From Naegleria gruberi (lineage: Eukaryota), in NCBI GenBank assembly GCA_000004985.1, contig GG739205.1: 3,829 nucleotides of DNA; one strand, written 5' to 3'. This document shows positions 2-3,829 of the stretch, piece by piece. The stretch's first letter is position 1; each line of letters opens with the position of its first letter. The position numbers and the translations under genes are program-made. The notes beneath the pieces were generated by a model. It had not been told where the DNA came from. It did not search any database and worked only from the letters and a program-made list of their open reading frames with translations.

Positions 2-334
2 CCAATTTCAATACTAAAATCATACATGGATTTGGTTAGGAATTTCAAAGATGCTGAGTCCCCATTATTTTCCTTCGAAAACGACAAATTCTTTGATTCA
101 GATGGTATTTCAAAGATACTAAAGAATGCAGTGGGTATAGTAGATCAAGGCGTAACAGTCTCAGGTCACAGCCTTAGAATAGGTGCTATCACAGAAGGAC
201 TCAGAAAGGGTATGTCTACAACTGATCTAATGGTCGGTGCAAGACATAAAAAGGAAAAAAGTTTATTTCCTTACCTTAGATCTGAAGGCCTAGCTGGCAA
301 GAATTTCACTAACACTCTATTTTCTCTGGACTAA
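2..334 (+). CDS. 3' (C-terminal) part of a tyrosine site-specific recombinase (phage-integrase family catalytic domain). It is 5'-incomplete: the frame is open back to the window edge at position 2, and the first in-frame ATG is at 26. The stop is TAA at 332-334.
   Basis: The translation contains SGHSLRIGAIT, with the box II His-x-x-Arg at H48/R51 of the 102-aa ORF. H74 sits 23 residues after R51, which is the usual His/Trp III position. The candidate catalytic Y83 lies in PYLRS, 9 residues after H74 and 32 after R51. This R-to-H-to-Y spacing matches XerD-like tyrosine recombinases. The frame upstream of the ATG (PISILKSY) is open to position 2 and stays homologous to the region upstream of ORF2. 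GC is about 40% here against about 20% in the flanks. Confidence 0.7.
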   Translation, partial: PISILKSYMDLVRNFKDAESPLFSFENDKFFDSDGISKILKNAVGIVDQGVTVSGHSLRIGAITEGLRKGMSTTDLMVGARHKKEKSLFPYLRSEGLAGKNFTNTLFSLD

Positions 335-382
335 CCCATTGGTTTATCAACGAAATTCTTTATTGTTTTATTTGGAGAAATA
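334..382 (+). repeat. Direct repeat A1, 49 bp: ACCCATTGGTTTATCAACGAAATTCTTTATTGTTTTATTTGGAGAAATA. It is a perfect copy of 1009-1057.
   Basis: I compared the two copies by eye and they match 49/49. The first base is the last base of ORF1's TAA stop. Flanking sequence diverges immediately on both sides (…CTA|A vs …TCT|A on the left, TGG vs AAC on the right). Confidence 0.9.
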
Positions 383-461
383 TGGCTAGTTGCGAGGAAC
401 GATGCAACGTTAGTATTTCGACAAATTGTAAACAATAAAATTGAGTTGATAAATAATTTTT

Positions 462-532
462 ATGCTCAAAAAAATTAAGAAACATGGTAAACACACCAAG
501 CAAAATCATTGCTGACCCACCCACCCATTCCC
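462..532 (+). repeat. C-element copy 1. It has a 5' ATGCTCAAAAAAA box, a variable middle, and a 3' C-rich end CCCACCCACCCATTCCC. The opposite strand of that end reads GGGAATGGGTGGGTGGG, a four-tract G-quadruplex motif.
   Basis: It shares both of its ends with 1581-1643 and with 3581-3625 (minus strand). It lies 80 bp to the right of A1. It is followed by TTAATTTCATC and then an 8-3-8 palindrome AAGAATTC-CTT-GAATTCTT (544-562). Confidence 0.75.
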
Positions 533-836
533 TTAATTTCATCAAGAATTCCTTGAATTCTTTCAAATAGTCCTTCACTCCTTGAGTGTTTTTTCCTATT
601 TGTCTTTTAGTTTGATCTTGGTAAGTGATCCTTCTAAGGATGCAGGATTTGTATTACCTTGTGATACAATAATTTTTATTTCTAACTAACATCATTTGAA
701 TAATTCGAAATATGCTCGTAAAGTAAGCCAGATTTATTTTTTCAAAAAATATTTCTGATGGAAATTACCAGGCATTTTTTTACAAGCAATTCACTAGTTA
801 AAATAGAGAACTTTAATGGATTGGAGTTTTTACCGA

Positions 837-861
837 TTTTTTCCTGCAATGCAGGTTTTTT
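837..861. other. Short GC hairpin CCTGC-aat-GCAGG (843-855) flanked by T6 on both sides. It looks like a weak bidirectional terminator.
   Basis: The sequence is TTTTTT-CCTGCAATGCAGG-TTTTTT. The stem is only 5 bp with a 3-nt loop. Confidence 0.3.
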
Positions 862-1008
862 ATAGGGGAGTTGTTCTACTTCAATCTCGATTTTGTAAAC
901 AACTTTATTAACTCGGGACAATGCTGAATAAAGTCAATGACCTAAAAGGCAACATTTCCGAGCAACATACCTCATCCTTTGGATGAAGAATATGTTGAGT
1001 GAGCTTCT

Positions 1009-1057
1009 ACCCATTGGTTTATCAACGAAATTCTTTATTGTTTTATTTGGAGAAATA
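1009..1057 (+). repeat. Direct repeat A2, 49 bp, a perfect copy of 334-382. Its last two bases are part of the in-frame TAA (1056-1058) that truncates the ORF2 homology.
   Basis: It is identical over 49 bp to 334-382. It lies 64 bp upstream of the ORF2 ATG. Recombinase-homologous coding sequence begins 1 bp after it, at 1059. Confidence 0.9.
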
Positions 1058-1121
1058 AACTCCTATTGAACCATATCGAGGAAATAAGAAATACTGTCCA
1101 GTTTATAACCTTAGAAGATAC

Positions 1122-1430
1122 ATGGACTATGTTAAACATATTAAGGAAGACGATTCTCCATTATTTTCGTTGATGTTTGATGAATATTTCACTCCTACTC
1201 AAATTTCTAATATTATTTCAAGCTCCATGAGCTCTATTGGTGTTCAAAACACTTCAGGCCATAGCCTTCGTATAAGTGCAGCTACTGAGCTGGCTTCTAA
1301 GGGTGTGTCTCAATCTGTGATTGAGACTGCTGGTAATTGGGTGCCTAATTCAAAAGCTAGATTGAGATATCAACGTAGAATTGGCCTAGCTACTCATGGT
1401 TTAACTACTTCTATTATGAGAACTGATTAA
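1122..1430 (+). CDS. Second, diverged paralogous copy of the tyrosine-recombinase C-terminal catalytic segment (102 codons, TAA stop at 1428-1430). It appears 5'-truncated: protein-level homology to ORF1 continues upstream to about 1059 and is ended by an in-frame TAA at 1056-1058. It may be a gene fragment or pseudogene, or a terminal exon.
   Basis: The translation contains SGHSLRISAATELASKGVSQSVIETAGNWVPNSKARLRYQRR. This gives H47-x-x-R50, then W73 at the His/Trp position 23 residues after the Arg (Trp occupies this position in Cre, Flp and many eukaryotic YRs). Y83 follows 10 residues later in the motif RLRYQR. The ORF is collinear with ORF1 over all 102 residues at roughly 36% identity and ends on the same C-terminal ...D. 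The upstream in-frame translation CPVYNLRRYMDYV aligns with ORF1's PISILKSYMDLV. The box I Arg and Lys regions that should lie further N-terminal are not present before the stop. Confidence 0.55.
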   Translation: MDYVKHIKEDDSPLFSLMFDEYFTPTQISNIISSSMSSIGVQNTSGHSLRISAATELASKGVSQSVIETAGNWVPNSKARLRYQRRIGLATHGLTTSIMRTD

Positions 1431-1458
1431 CTATATATATTTATTATTTACTAAGGAC

Positions 1459-1510
1459 TAATCCATTTGTCTTAATTTATTATTTTATTATTTTGTGATT
1501 TTAAAAACAT
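1459..1510 (+). repeat. Direct repeat B1, 52 bp: TAATCCATTTGTCTTAATTTATTATTTTATTATTTTGTGATTTTAAAAACAT. It is a perfect copy of 2052-2103.
   Basis: It matches 2052-2103 at 52/52. It begins 28 bp after the ORF2 stop. It resembles the A repeat at roughly 60-65% identity (CCATTGGTTTATCAA vs CCATTTGTCTTAATT, and TTTATTGTTTTATTTGG vs TTTATTATTTTGTGATT), which suggests a diverged homologue. Confidence 0.9.
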
Positions 1511-1580
1511 GGGAGTTCTGAACATGGTGAAGAACTAGTGTGTTTTTATACAAAATTATTAAAATATTATTTTAAAAATT

Positions 1581-1643
1581 ATGCTCAAAAAATAGTCTCA
1601 ACATCATGTCATCATTAAGGCAAAGTCCCACCCATACCCACCC
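1581..1643 (+). repeat. C-element copy 2. It starts ATGCTCAAAAAA and ends TCCCACCCATACCCACCC. The complement of that end is GGGTGGGTATGGGTGGG, a G4 motif with loops of 1, 3 and 1 nt.
   Basis: The 5' box and 3' C-rich end are the same as in copy 1, and TTAATT follows in both. It lies 70 bp to the right of B1. This mirrors the A1-to-C1 arrangement. Confidence 0.75.
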
Positions 1644-1971
1644 TTAATTAGTATTTACAATTTTTCAGCCTTTATTTCGCTCATTAGCACCCAGTAAGTG
1701 GGCTAATTTCAGAGTGCGGCTGTGTACATTCAAGATGTGCAATTTTTACATTTATTCACTAACTTATTTTTTGGATGACAGTTTCTAATAGATTCGAATC
1801 ATTTTATTTTTCATTCCATTTGTTTCAGAAAATTCATATAGATTTTTATATATTAATGGTGATTTTAGGAACAGGTTTTACAATTTATTCACATACTCTA
1901 TGTTTTTTCTTATCTTTAGCTTCAAAACTATCGATAAGTTTTTCATAATTTTGAGACTTTAATTTCTAGGG

Positions 1972-2008
1972 ACCTGCTAAATAAAGATTTATATCCTTTA
2001 AAGCAGGT
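1972..2008. other. Stem-loop with a 7-bp stem ACCTGCT/AGCAGGT and a 23-nt AT-rich loop. The 5' arm is part of the motif GGACCTGCTAAATAAAG, which recurs inverted at 3000-3017 as GGACCTGCTGAATAAAGC on the minus strand.
   Basis: The inverted repeat is read directly. The second motif copy matches at 17/18. Both contain AATAAA. Confidence 0.3.
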
Positions 2009-2051
2009 TCCAAGGTTGATTCACCATATGGTGTCTCAATCCTTGAGCTTT

Positions 2052-2103
2052 TAATCCATTTGTCTTAATTTATTATTTTATTATTTTGTGATTTTAAAAA
2101 CAT
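2052..2103 (+). repeat. Direct repeat B2, 52 bp, a perfect copy of 1459-1510.
   Basis: It is identical over 52 bp. Its left flank (CTTGAGCTTT|TA) resembles the left flank of A2 (TTGAGTGAGCTTCT|A). This indicates that the A1..A2 and B1..B2 units are homologous as whole units. Confidence 0.9.
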
Positions 2104-2900
2104 ATAATTTGAAAAATTTATCAAGTGTTGTAGTTAAAATTTAATTTGAGTGTAATAAATCTTTATATGAAAAGCTATAAAAAGTACTTTCTTTATTAGA
2201 GATCAAGTTATCGGCGTTAATTGTCTTAAAAATCAATGTTGTTAAACAACTTCAATCATATTTATTAGAATCTTGATGATACAATTTTTTAGACATACCA
2301 TGTTTACCATTTAATATCGAGTAGTAAAAATATGTAAATTAAAAAAAGGAAAAAATGTTGAGTTTTGGTATTTTTTTAAAAAATGTTTTTTTGAAAAAAA
2401 TTTCGATAAAAACTAGAAATTTATTAGTATTTCAATGAAAAATACGAATTTTCATACATGCGTTGGTGGGATATGTTTGTCATATTAGATATTTAATAAA
2501 AATAAAATAAAAATTTTCGCATGTAAATATATATATATATATATACATCCGAAAAAATTTTTGTTGAAAGTTGGTTTATAAGATGGTGGTTAAATTGGTT
2601 TATCTGAAAAATCATTTAAAAGTGATTTAAATATAAAGATAATGAAATTAATTGAAAATTAAGAAGCTAAAATAAATTTTCAAAAATTTATCGATTTGAA
2701 ATTTAGAAAAGCTTAACAAAGTAATATATAAAATATAAAAAACCATTAATTTTTAAAAATCTTCTAAAGTTGGTATTATCATTATGAAGATTATTGATTG
2801 GAAGTAATAATCTTTATGGTAAATCCAAAGAAAATGAATTCAAAGAAAGAACAAACTTTCTAAAAATATTACAAAAACACTGTTATGTTTCTTAAAAGAA
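2104..2900. repeat. Low-complexity A/T homopolymer-rich tract. It contains many A5-8 and T5-8 runs and a reiterated AAAAAATGTT-like motif at 2345-2400. No ORFs are present.
   Basis: Composition is roughly 85% A+T. Stop codons are dense in all six frames. It follows repeat B2 immediately. Confidence 0.6.
2527..2545. repeat. (AT)n dinucleotide microsatellite of about 9.5 units.
   Basis: The sequence is atatatatatatatatata. A shorter (TA)4 run lies at 1433-1440. Confidence 0.9.
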
Positions 2901-3111
2901 AACCAACAATAAATAAACTAATAGATATAAAGCTCACACTACAACTTCTACCTATTCTTAGGTAGTTTGTAGCCTGGTTACTGCTGTTTTTAGGCATTAA
3001 GCTTTATTCAGCAGGTCCAGAAATTAAATAAACTAATCAATACAATCATACTATGATTTCTTAACAAAAAGCAAAAACTAAACTAAATTAAAGCAATCTG
3101 ACAATAAACCA

Positions 3112-3134
3112 AGTTGTTTTTTGGAGAAACAACT
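3112..3134. other. Hairpin with an 8-bp stem (AGTTGTTT / AAACAACT) and a 7-nt loop TTTGGAG. The loop and 3' side resemble the right end of the A repeat plus A2's flank (TTGTTTTATTTGGAGAAATAAACTCC vs TTGTTTTTTGGAGAAACAACTCCC).
   Basis: The inverted repeat is read directly from the sequence. The similarity to A2 and its flank is about 21/26 after allowing one 2-bp indel. Confidence 0.35.
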
Positions 3135-3141
3135 CCCATAT

Positions 3142-3170
3142 AAAAAAACCTACTCTTGTAGGAAAAAAAA
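3142..3170. other. Short hairpin CCTAC-tctt-GTAGG (3149-3162) flanked by A7 and A8. Its architecture and stem sequence resemble the 843-855 hairpin (CCTRC...GYAGG).
   Basis: The sequence is AAAAAAA-CCTACTCTTGTAGG-AAAAAAAA. The 13-mer AAAAAACCTACTC recurs at 3198-3210. Confidence 0.3.
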
Positions 3171-3273
3171 TCGGTAAAAACCAAAAAGTTAAGAATTAAA
3201 AAACCTACTCAACCGTCTTGACACTTACGAATCAAAACGAGAATGAGAAAAGAGGTATGTTCAGTACATATTG

Positions 3274-3309
3274 CCTTACTAATAGTAAGGGAAAGGTATC
3301 AGATACCTT
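3274..3309. promoter_or_regulatory. Two adjacent perfect 17-bp palindromes: CCTTACTA-A-TAGTAAGG (3274-3290) and AAGGTATC-A-GATACCTT (3293-3309). Each has 8-bp arms and a 1-bp centre. Candidate dimeric protein-binding sites.
   Basis: Both are perfect inverted repeats when read by eye. They are separated by 2 bp. Both arms carry CCTT/AAGG ends. They lie within about 30 bp of the phased direct repeats at 3335-3371. Confidence 0.5.
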
Positions 3310-3334
3310 CTAATCAACATAAAATTGATCTGTC

Positions 3335-3371
3335 GGTTTTAGATCACCAACAATTGGTTTTAGATCACCAA
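3335..3371. repeat. Two perfect 16-bp direct repeats, GGTTTTAGATCACCAA, at 3335-3350 and 3356-3371. The 21-bp phasing equals two helical turns, which is iteron-like.
   Basis: The two copies match exactly. Each contains GATC. They lie directly downstream of the twin palindromes. Confidence 0.8.
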
Positions 3372-3580
3372 TCATGATAAAAAACATCAATAAATGATGT
3401 CAAATATCAAATAATAATACAAAGATAAAAAGATGATAACAATCATCTTTCAATAATACAAATAGAGTGAAATCTTTCAATCAATTGAGAAAATATTTGA
3501 GGATTGATTAAAAAATCACATTCTAAAGTATTAAGGACAAAGGTTAGAACCTTTGATTTGAATAAACTAATAATAATAGA

Positions 3581-3625
3581 GGGTGGGCAAGGGTGGGACC
3601 ATAGTATGACAATTTTTTTGAGCAT
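3581..3625 (-). repeat. C-element copy 3, in inverted orientation. The minus strand reads ATGCTCAAAAAAATTGTCATACTATGGTCCCACCCTTGCCCACCC. The plus strand carries GGGTGGGCAAGGGTGGG, a G4 motif.
   Basis: It has the same 12-bp 5' box and the same CCCACCC-N3-CCCACCC end, with a shorter middle. It is followed on the minus strand by an 8-2-8 palindrome (plus strand 3538-3555, CAAAGGTT-AG-AACCTTTG). Confidence 0.7.
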
Positions 3626-3681
3626 ACTTTCTATTATTAGTTTATTCAATTGTTGTTTTCAAGAAACACTACTTTATCTCA

Positions 3682-3829
3682 GTAAACTTCGATAAGAACA
3701 GAAATATCAAAGAATGTGGAAGAGATAAGGTAGTTTAAACCCTTCTCAGCGTAAGAACTTGTAATACTACTCAATCCGCTTCTATGGAATAGGTTGAAAA
3801 ATAGCAAAAGATAAACGCCACCAATATTT
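3682..3829 (-). CDS. Possible 3' end of a minus-strand gene that runs off the right edge of the window. There are 49 open codons ending in TGA (plus-strand 3679-3681). The product is unknown.
   Basis: An open 49-codon stretch is unusual in this stop-rich AT background. Local G+C is about 38%, higher than the surrounding non-coding DNA. The translation is ...NIGGVYLLLFFNLFHRSGLSSITSSYAEKGLNYLISSTFFDISVLIEVY*. I recognise no motif in it. Confidence 0.2.

Follow-up and report, generated by a model that had tools for sequence, protein, structure and literature searches.

Split direct repeats of the form A1...B1-A2-B2 define the PAT-like, Ngaro and VIPER elements (PMC4157794, PMC6681497). In the replication of DIRS elements, the sub-genomic transcript lacks end sequences, which are restored from an internal copy of the circle junction, and DIRS-1 replicates via single-stranded cDNA (PMC7192593). 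Seven DIRS-like sequences, belonging to six families, have been counted in Naegleria gruberi, and their status was left uncertain (PMC3266345). Here we analysed a window of 3829 bp, which is one whole small N. gruberi scaffold, and in particular three of its segments, the C elements, which start at a conserved 13-mer (TATGCTCAAAAAA) and end in tracts able to form a G-quadruplex (G4) on one strand. Our analysis indicates that these segments are probably a cis-module that belongs to the leader or lies close to the promoter, at the A region's 5' edge, in the terminal repeat of N. gruberi retrotransposons that belong to the DIRS order and encode a tyrosine recombinase (YR).

Two C-terminal fragments of YR genes lie in the window, and each is followed by an exact direct-repeat pair, B1 and B2, that encloses a region designated A. 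The members of the pair are identical over 49/49 nt in element 1, where they enclose 626 bp, and over 52/52 nt in element 2, where they enclose 541 bp (Table 1). A third, homologous A-B unit is inverted, runs roughly from 3715 down to 2869 and shows the landmarks in the same order as the other units. A hidden Markov model (HMM) search found no YR remnant in it, a candidate noticed by eye upstream of the unit (HRSGLSSIT...KG) having disappeared in that search, and no B1 repeat was found; this leaves two readings, a solo or a truncated A-B unit. The homology of the second recombinase (YR2) starts 1-2 nt past the end of element 1's B2, and position 1057 is therefore read as the end of an element that abuts a 5'-truncated element 2. 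At 1057-1059 one DIRS-like element is nested in, or abuts, the recombinase gene of another, YR2 starting at about codon 180 (TPIEPY...); clusters of DIRS-1 are known to show such insertions. The window holds three pieces: element 1 and the 5'-truncated element 2, each present as its 3' end, and the YR-less inverted A-B unit.

The A-B units of element 1, of element 2 and of the inverted stretch (units A, B and C) are colinear homologues that have diverged almost to randomness apart from a few conserved islands. These are the 13-mer, the C tracts with TTAAT, GTTTTTACCGATTTTTT...TATAGGGGAGTTGT (units A and C), CTGCTGAATAAAG, and GAGCTT with the start of B2. The CTGCTGAATAAAG island lies about 60-75 nt before B2 and is common to all three units and to L038, a decayed relative of unit A. 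A first, sequence-only reading of the window had taken the C elements for a three-member element family; they are instead one segment of the terminal repeat (B1-A-B2) of a YR retrotransposon, colinear with the AATAAA and GAGCTT-B2 islands. The three copies are homologous parts of larger units with one conserved origin, and do not count as three independent occurrences. An independent small mobile element, resembling a miniature inverted-repeat transposable element or a short interspersed nuclear element, was rejected since all copies are colinear parts of larger units and the copy in the related contig L036 is likewise placed after a YR gene.

The 12-mer ATGCTCAAAAAA, followed after 16-42 nt by four C3 tracts, occurs three times in the window, at 462-532 and 1581-1643 on the plus strand and at 3581-3625 on the minus strand. 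The composite pattern ATGCTCAAAAAA-N{14,44}-CCCACCC-N{1,3}-CCC has exactly three matches (462-526 +, 1581-1639 +, 3585-3625 -) and none in 200 dinucleotide shuffles. Copies 2 and 3 share CCCACCCNNNCCCACCC exactly (1627-1643 + and 3581-3597 -; shuffle mean 0.01), and the tract of copy 1 at 516-532, CCCACCCACCCATTCCC, is a re-phased version with 3 mismatches, whose loops on the G strand run 3, 1 and 1 nt. Read on the G-rich strand, the tracts are GGGAATGGGTGGGTGGG, GGGTGGGTATGGGTGGG and GGGTGGGCAAGGGTGGG; two CCCACCC heptamers and four C3 runs are kept in all three copies, and the loops vary. The canonical G4 expression (four G3+ tracts, loops of 1-7 nt) matches only at these three places in the window and 0.0 times in 2000 shuffles. 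G4Hunter scores of at least 1.0 are likewise found only at the three C tracts (1.44-1.48, the next best being 0.88), and in the quadruplex model of ViennaRNA the predicted G4s have three layers and are favoured by about 20 kcal/mol over any Watson-Crick fold.

These three methods confirmed the proposal of the sequence-only reading that all three C elements end in a short-loop G4 motif. The lengths of 71, 63 and 45 nt and the loop order of copy 1 were as it had described them, and its remark that G3 clusters stand out also holds: 12/29 G3/C3 runs of the window fall in the three C tracts, its only canonical G4 motifs. The surroundings, which it had put at about 80% AT, are really about 70% AT, with a GC content of 0.29 for the whole window and of about 0.29-0.32 in the repeat units; the higher value applies only to the spacer at 2104-2868 (GC 0.20). 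The common 12-mer start that it reported is indeed shared, but the true conserved string is the 13-mer, the longest substring common to the three units (shuffles gave at most 11, reached in 2/500). The candidate poly(A)-signal block TGCTGAATAAA (921-933, 1974-1986 and 3002-3014) resembles the core of the 12-mer, TGCTCAAAAAA, at 9/11 positions and surfaced as a 2-mismatch match in the 12-mer scan; this likeness could be chance in A-rich DNA, or a short terminal homology for strand transfer.

Conservation beyond the scaffold was followed in relatives that are metagenome and read-archive contigs from public assemblies, the gene layout being read where the contigs allowed. L036, a metagenome contig, carries the exact TATGCTCAAAAAA at the equivalent offset (chance in 190 nt about 1e-5) and reads GCAAAGTCCCCAGTCAAGACTCC, without tracts, at the C-tract position. 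L038 keeps ATGCTCAAA (9/12 of the 12-mer) together with the AATAAA block, and L039 has a degenerate version of the 12-mer and no exact one; both are without tracts. Of the two ends expected to be kept in additional copies, the 5' end with the 13-mer was recovered to these different degrees, but the G4 end is absent in all three. The middle portion, which had been described as free, does vary, but copy 2 and L036 share TCTCAA...GCAAAGTCCC there. The 13-mer is identical across lineages whose YRs share 35-59% amino-acid identity. In the contigs compared, the 13-mer thus appears as a family-level feature and the G4 motif as confined, as far as visible, to the three N. gruberi copies. A motif scan of JGI metagenomes gave 19 matches in contigs with a GC content of 0.37-0.59, none with TTAATT or palindrome context and none in a family member, and the 10 matches in IMG/VR (sequences unread) are assumed to be chance. 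Four of the JGI contigs (L013, L023, L026 and L028; GC 0.55-0.58) share an element of about 90 nt that starts with ATGCTCAAAAAA and ends in ...ATTTCACCCACCCGCCCTGAGTCTGCCAAGACAGCCTCTT; this GC-rich element is probably bacterial and has no relation to the repeat found in Naegleria.

The position of the C element relative to the repeats and to the recombinase gene is also conserved. In units A and B and in L036, B1 and an imperfect inverted copy of it make up a palindrome that measures about 65-110 nt and has its centre immediately beyond the B/A junction. Folded as single-stranded DNA this palindrome reaches -20.7 kcal/mol (z -4.6) in unit A; the values are -15.5 kcal/mol (z -3.95) in unit B and z -5.2 in L036. 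In element 1 it is laid out as a B arm, a 31-nt loop with its own small stem and an inverted B-like arm at 414-453. The gap from the palindrome to the 13-mer is 8 nt in unit A, about 5 nt in unit B and 5 nt in L036, and in unit C the 13-mer lies one base past the inverted-B arm, each C element standing 0-8 nt past the B/A-junction palindrome. As had been noticed earlier, copies 1 and 2 occupy equivalent positions, at distances of 128 and 122 nt from where their B1 starts, and copy 3 is inverted. The expectation that the motif tracks recombinase genes was also borne out: in the window and in L036 it lies 111-128 nt after the start of B1, and B1 in turn starts either right at the YR stop or within about 30 nt beyond it. 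The start of B is marked by GGAMC(N0-3)TAMCCCATTNGT, a second invariant cis-signal of the family. In all copies seen, at least 7 of them independent, this motif covers the YR stop codon or comes after it (328-345 and 1453-1470 in the window; after the YR stop in L001, L002, L032, L033, L036 and L039). Copy 3 is itself surrounded by a perfect 18-nt inverted repeat, TTGAATAAACTAATAATA, unlike copies 1 and 2, whose palindrome lies entirely upstream of the element; that it is perfect although the unit around it has diverged points to a recent rearrangement at this site.

The assignment of the family was based on the recombinases and on the gene order of the relatives. The open reading frame (ORF) of 102 aa at 1122-1430 is 100% identical to an annotated N. 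gruberi 'predicted protein' (P0001). The YR2 ORF (ORF2) matches Pfam PF00589 with an E-value of 2.2e-5 and 24.7 bits, under the gathering cut-off of 27.1, and the family HMM scores YR2 at 168.6 and the recombinase of element 1 (YR1) at 144.7. YR1 carries the GHSLRIG...Y motifs, GHSLRIG and the downstream Y/R being conserved, and shares 35% amino-acid identity with YR2. The intact YR of L036 (P0156) is 59% identical to YR1 and 39% to YR2. A profile search yielded 527 relatives, 16 of them at E<=1e-10, with YR proteins of about 300 aa as the best, and word-indexed searches added further N. gruberi and N. fowleri proteins. The YR-based locus search found nothing in IMG/VR and only bacterial integrases in GTDB genomes.

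In the relatives the YR ORF comes after a reverse transcriptase (RT) ORF of 640-668 aa with an RVT_1 match (E about 1e-23; L033, L034 and L039), the two ORFs overlapping by 4 nt in L033 and L034 and lying 83 nt apart in L039. The RT ORF also gives a weak RNase H-like match (RVT_3) and, at an equivalent position in 3/3 relatives, a match to the Dam-like PF05869 (E 6.4e-4, 1.9e-5 and 7.4e-6, all below the gathering score of 28.1 bits). A Dam-like domain at this place distinguishes the DIRS group in the strict sense (DIRS1-like and PAT-like elements) from Ngaro and VIPER. A gag-like ORF without a Pfam match lies upstream of it. In our case RT falls outside the window, which starts inside YR1. Because the relatives have the YR after the RT/RNase H/Dam-like ORF together with exact direct B repeats, the family can be classed, by gene order and repeat structure, as a DIRS-order YR retrotransposon with split direct repeats, PAT- or Ngaro-like. 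L039 (Logan contig, ERR2815209) closes on itself through a 30-nt overlap (1-30 / 4098-4127), giving a unit of about 4.1 kb. The order along the closed contig is gag-like ORF, RT, YR stop, B, palindrome and ATCGCTAAAAAATG, whose ATG opens ORF1, continuing at the contig head. Since this contig closes on itself with the ORF1 start after B and palindrome, the DNA after B1 is read as the element's 5' end; the closure could reflect a collapse of A1 and A2, a tandem array or a circular intermediate. In L034 an ORF opens at TTTTAAAAAATG, 20 nt beyond the stop codon of the YR. Both L039 and L034 have six consecutive A immediately before the ATG of ORF1, and the ATG of L039 lies just past the junction palindrome, where the 13-mer sits in the window.

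Taking the A-run of the 13-mer as the counterpart of the six-A run before the relatives' ORF1 ATG, we read the C element as a leader region. The 13-mer would be a transcription-start or 5'-leader signal of the element's genomic RNA, which would start at or near it. As the 13-mer is invariant while the B repeats and YRs diverge between families, it would be recognised by a host factor, the element's own recombinase being the less likely partner. The B1/A2 junction would be the analogue of the internal circle-junction copy of DIRS elements, with A beginning in the loop of the palindrome. An RNA starting from the 13-mer would lack the first 70-80 nt of A, a piece that could be restored from the internal B1-A2 copy, in the manner of DIRS-1's internal complementary region (ICR), and the AATAAA block, as a candidate poly(A) signal, would be followed by the RNA's 3' end. 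The C tract may be a promoter-proximal add-on, either a tandem CACCC-type factor site or a G4/i-motif switch; selection for the one and for the other would both fit the kept tracts. Because the sense transcript is C-rich, a G4 would be possible only on the template DNA strand or on single-stranded first-strand cDNA.

Several points weigh against this interpretation. The transcription start and the poly(A) site are putative, as is the strand used. The 5' ends (A1) of the window's elements lie outside the window, and the identity of A1 and A2 is for them a presumption, to which the self-closing L039 contig, with its ORF1 start after B, lends indirect support. A start at the 13-mer needs a bypass of the AATAAA block about 450 nt downstream in A1. 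The C tract is missing in L036, which is the closest YR relative of element 1, as well as in L038 and L039, and is therefore dispensable for the family; its conservation rests on three copies from one scaffold. Finally, the matches to the Dam-like methyltransferase (MT) domain are under the Pfam gathering score.

Other explanations of the C elements were weighed against the leader reading. It is rather unlikely that they are a landing or accessory site of the recombinase, in which the YR or its N-terminal DNA-binding domain would bind the 13-mer and/or the CCCACCC heptamers. The heptamers are phased by 10 bp, on one helical face, beside the B/A junction, which would be the circle-junction copy and is the presumed place of integration, and direct heptamers one helical turn apart resemble the arm-type or accessory sites of other tyrosine recombinases. 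The closeness of the C element to the junction palindrome (0-8 nt in units A, B and L036) also agrees with such a site, and the specificity of DIRS YRs is without experimental study (PMC7192593), which leaves room for it. However, the 13-mer is identical although YR1 and YR2 are 35% identical and their B repeats differ, where co-divergence would be expected; L036 has an intact YR but no C tract, and the motif does not have an inverted-repeat core architecture. The suggestion of a functional module with conserved ends survives in part, in that the ends are islands in almost randomised units and a protein landing site is still a live candidate, but it does not survive for an RNA or an origin.

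We give a comparably small chance to the possibility that the G4 (or i-motif) itself is selected, as a switch on transcription from the terminal repeat or on the single-stranded first-strand cDNA, where it might pause the reverse transcriptase, assist strand transfer or protect the end. Four G3 tracts within 17 nt are found in all copies, with loops that change from copy to copy (ATA, CAA and, re-phased in copy 1, A/ATT), and the predicted structures are very stable, as the G4Hunter scores also indicate. G4s in the long terminal repeats (LTRs) of HIV-1 and of plant retrotransposons are regulators. DIRS-1 replication, moreover, has the single-stranded cDNA stage that such a role calls for (PMC7192593). 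On the other side, L036, L038 and L039 lack the motif at the homologous site, only three copies are known, all on one scaffold, and its folding is a prediction from sequence. In addition, the C-rich strand is the one carried by the sense RNA, and the two intact heptamers in all three copies are explained equally well by a protein site. A more specific version appears doubtful to a greater degree, namely that the G-rich strand folds as a stable parallel G4 near the cDNA 3' end, just before the complement of the 13-mer, and acts in replication. It would there cause an RT pause that promotes strand transfer onto the internal B1-A2 copy, or protect or mark the end for circle closure; if true, a G4 would play a mechanistic part in tyrosine-recombinase retrotransposition, one that the lineages living in N. 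gruberi have acquired.

A similarly slight probability attaches to the C element as the decayed start of the gag-like ORF1, with the ATG of the 12-mer as start codon (MLKK...) and the C tracts as Pro/Thr/His codons, the conservation reflecting past coding and start-codon context. The ORF1 ATG does stand directly after an A-run in L039 and L034, and the 12-mer ATG of L036 is in frame with the start codon placed by the A-run offset of L034 and L039 and stays open for 27 codons to the contig end. The ATG of copy 3 opens a frame of 61 codons, and SHP(Y/C)PP is encoded in the ATG frame of copies 2 and 3. However, copy 2 has a stop in this frame after 4 codons and copy 1 has one after 17; in copy 1 the C tract is in a different frame as well, and the spacers of 42, 34, 16 and 35 nt differ by amounts that are not all multiples of three. 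No plus-strand ORF of at least 40 aa reaches the end of any A unit, and a tblastn search of the relatives' gag-like ORF1s against the A units gave only noise. Least probable by far is a minus-strand small RNA gene or short GT...AG intron, in which each copy would read G|GTGGG...TTTTTTGAG|CAT. On the minus strand each of the three copies opens with GTGGG and closes with T6-7GAG, at lengths of 45-71 nt, but the elements have no Rfam match at E<=10 and fold no better than shuffles (z -0.57, +1.21 and +0.11). The minus-strand flanks are neither conserved nor coding, and L036 keeps only the T-run/GAGCAT end, without GTGGG at the other. This reading is already largely refuted, and with it the structured small-RNA gene of the sequence-only reading; the intron in particular was dropped for lack of exons and of conservation in L036. 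A primer-binding site for a tRNA was rejected as well, TGG preceding the C tract in copy 3 only. The origin that had also been proposed, taken as one of the plasmid or viral kind with iterons, was not supported: the supposed iterons are a single 21-bp tandem duplication, and a Pfam scan of the six ORFs of at least 57 aa (of 11 listed of at least 40 aa) gave matches only for ORF2, to the YR and weakly to RecX_HTH2 (E 0.18), with nothing related to replication.

The coordinates of the features are collected in Table 1.

Table 1. Position and strand of the repeats, recombinase remnants and conserved motifs in the 3829-bp window.
Feature	Position	Strand	Remarks
YR1, C-terminal part of element 1 recombinase gene	2-334	+	Runs off window start; family HMM match 2-325
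B1 repeat, element 1 (49 nt)	334-382	+	Starts at YR stop codon inside GGACTAACCCATT motif; 100% identical to 1009-1057
Imperfect palindrome over B1/A junction, element 1	343-453	.	40-nt arms, 70% complementary
Conserved 13-mer TATGCTCAAAAAA, start of C1	461-473	+	Recurs at equivalent place in L036
C element copy 1	462-532	+	C tracts 516-532 CCCACCCACCCATTCCC; G4 motif on minus strand
TGCTGAATAAAG block, element 1	922-933	+	AATAAA 926-931; about 75 nt before B2; common to three units and L038
B2 repeat and 3' end of element 1	1009-1057	+	Identical to 334-382
YR2, 5'-truncated element 2 recombinase gene, 123 codons	1059-1430	+	Pfam and HMM matches
B1 repeat, element 2 (52 nt)	1459-1510	+	100% identical to 2052-2103; L001 has this sequence after its YR remnant
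Imperfect palindrome at B1/A junction, element 2	1472-1575	.	Self-inverted match 69% over 107 nt
C element copy 2	1581-1643	+	13-mer 1580-1592; C tracts 1627-1643 CCCACCCATACCCACCC
CTGCTAAATAAAG block, element 2	1974-1986	+	AATAAA 1980-1985
B2 repeat and 3' end of element 2	2052-2103	+	Exact pair with 1459-1510
B-type repeat closing inverted unit	2869-2932	-	Inverted match with 3627-3685, 74% over 65 nt
CTGCTGAATAAAG block, inverted unit	3002-3014	-	Common to three units and L038
C element copy 3	3581-3625	-	13-mer 3626-3614 minus strand; plus-strand G tracts 3581-3597 GGGTGGGCAAGGGTGGG
Inverted-B arm directly upstream of C3	3627-3685	-	No significant fold, z +0.6
Perfect 18-nt inverted repeat TTGAATAAACTAATAATA around C3	3558-3575 / 3632-3649	.	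C3 in 56-nt loop; fold z -4.6

Upstream of the inverted-B arm at 3627-3685 no B1 repeat, hairpin partner or YR remnant was found, and the region 2894-3028 of the inverted unit matches the end of unit B (2087-1958). The A part of the inverted unit contains the 21-bp unit in a single tandem duplication (3335-3371, GGTTTTAGATCACCAA twice), without counterpart in units A or B. The 80% AT spacer at 2104-2868 lies where element 2 and the inverted unit face each other tail to tail and holds a palindrome centred on (AT)9 at 2504-2565 and a B-like stretch at 2594-2618 with 76% similarity to the B of unit A. It also shows a weak inverted similarity to the 3' half of unit B (2860-2480 against 1777-2149, 58%); the spacer may be a further decayed unit. 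DNA similarity searches of the whole window against plasmid and phage collections gave no match and a tRNA scan found none. Rfam at E<=10 gave chance matches only, miRNA-like on the (AT)n palindrome and snoRNA-like (SNORD87, E 7.6) at 714-787.

Two further observations concern the relatives. In 4/4 related elements the YR frame has no stop over some 1.5-1.8 kb that lie upstream of its YR domain, and there it overlaps most of the RT/RNase H/Dam-like ORF, which is read in a different frame (L033 810-3721; L034 917-3645; L039 879-3850; L032 325-2706). In L039, for example, a YR frame of 927 aa runs from 1067 to 3850 and the RT ORF from 879 to 2909. This overlapping open frame is far beyond chance at 37-41% GC, and its N-terminal 600 aa have no Pfam match. 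At 1-700 of L001, a decayed YR2 copy with its B repeat is directly preceded by an unrelated ORF of 220 aa (CxxC...H...C, no Pfam match), an arrangement that resembles a further case of nested insertion; a fragment of a long interspersed nuclear element, considered at first for L001, was rejected.

Taken together, the C element is a real, non-random feature of an ordinary kind, a conserved cis-segment with a lineage-restricted G4-capable tract. The analysis provides a first structural sketch of DIRS-like terminal repeats in Naegleria, a discoban lineage in which the presence of such elements had previously been scored only as uncertain, with the exact B1/B2 pair, the junction palindrome, the invariant 13-mer and the AATAAA block. 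Its main value lies in the annotation of these elements and in a candidate promoter or leader motif, and it holds little surprise. The papers searched contained no description of core-promoter or leader signals of Naegleria, for which the 13-mer is a candidate that could help to build expression tools. The G4 tract offers a cheap test case of a quadruplex motif in a YR retroelement replicating via single-stranded cDNA.

Clusters of G4 or Sp1 boxes occur in retroviral and plant LTRs, such as the U3 of HIV-1 and the LTRs of maize and other LTR retrotransposons. As in these LTRs, short-loop GGGNGGG boxes are found in the terminal repeat, on the strand opposite to the sense strand and near the presumed promoter. 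The element of the window, in contrast, is of the YR and not of the integrase class, its boxes are GGGTGGG (CACCC type) and not GGGCGGG, and its motif, which is a predicted one, is not conserved across its family. With DIRS-1 of Dictyostelium it shares the order of retroelements, a promoter (presumed here) in the terminal repeat, insertion of elements into each other and an internal circle-junction copy presumed to restore the ends missing from the sub-genomic transcript. It differs from DIRS-1 in that the exact repeats are direct and not inverted, and in that complementarity reaches only about 70% in the inverted B arm but is exact in the ICR of DIRS-1; the exactly complementary inverted repeats with ICR that mark DIRS1-like elements are not found in the elements of the window. 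Compared with the PAT-like, Ngaro and VIPER elements, the window copies were read without their A1, the Dam-like (MT) matches of its relatives are sub-threshold, and it has a long imperfect palindrome at the B/A junction followed by the invariant 13-mer and the G4-capable tract, of which the literature searched gave no description for those elements. In its main plan it is nevertheless like them: the YR ORF stands at the 3' end of the coding region with the internal repeats just downstream, exact B1/B2 direct repeats flank A, elements are nested into one another, and the relatives encode gag-like, RT/RNase H (with Dam-like) and YR ORFs on one strand.

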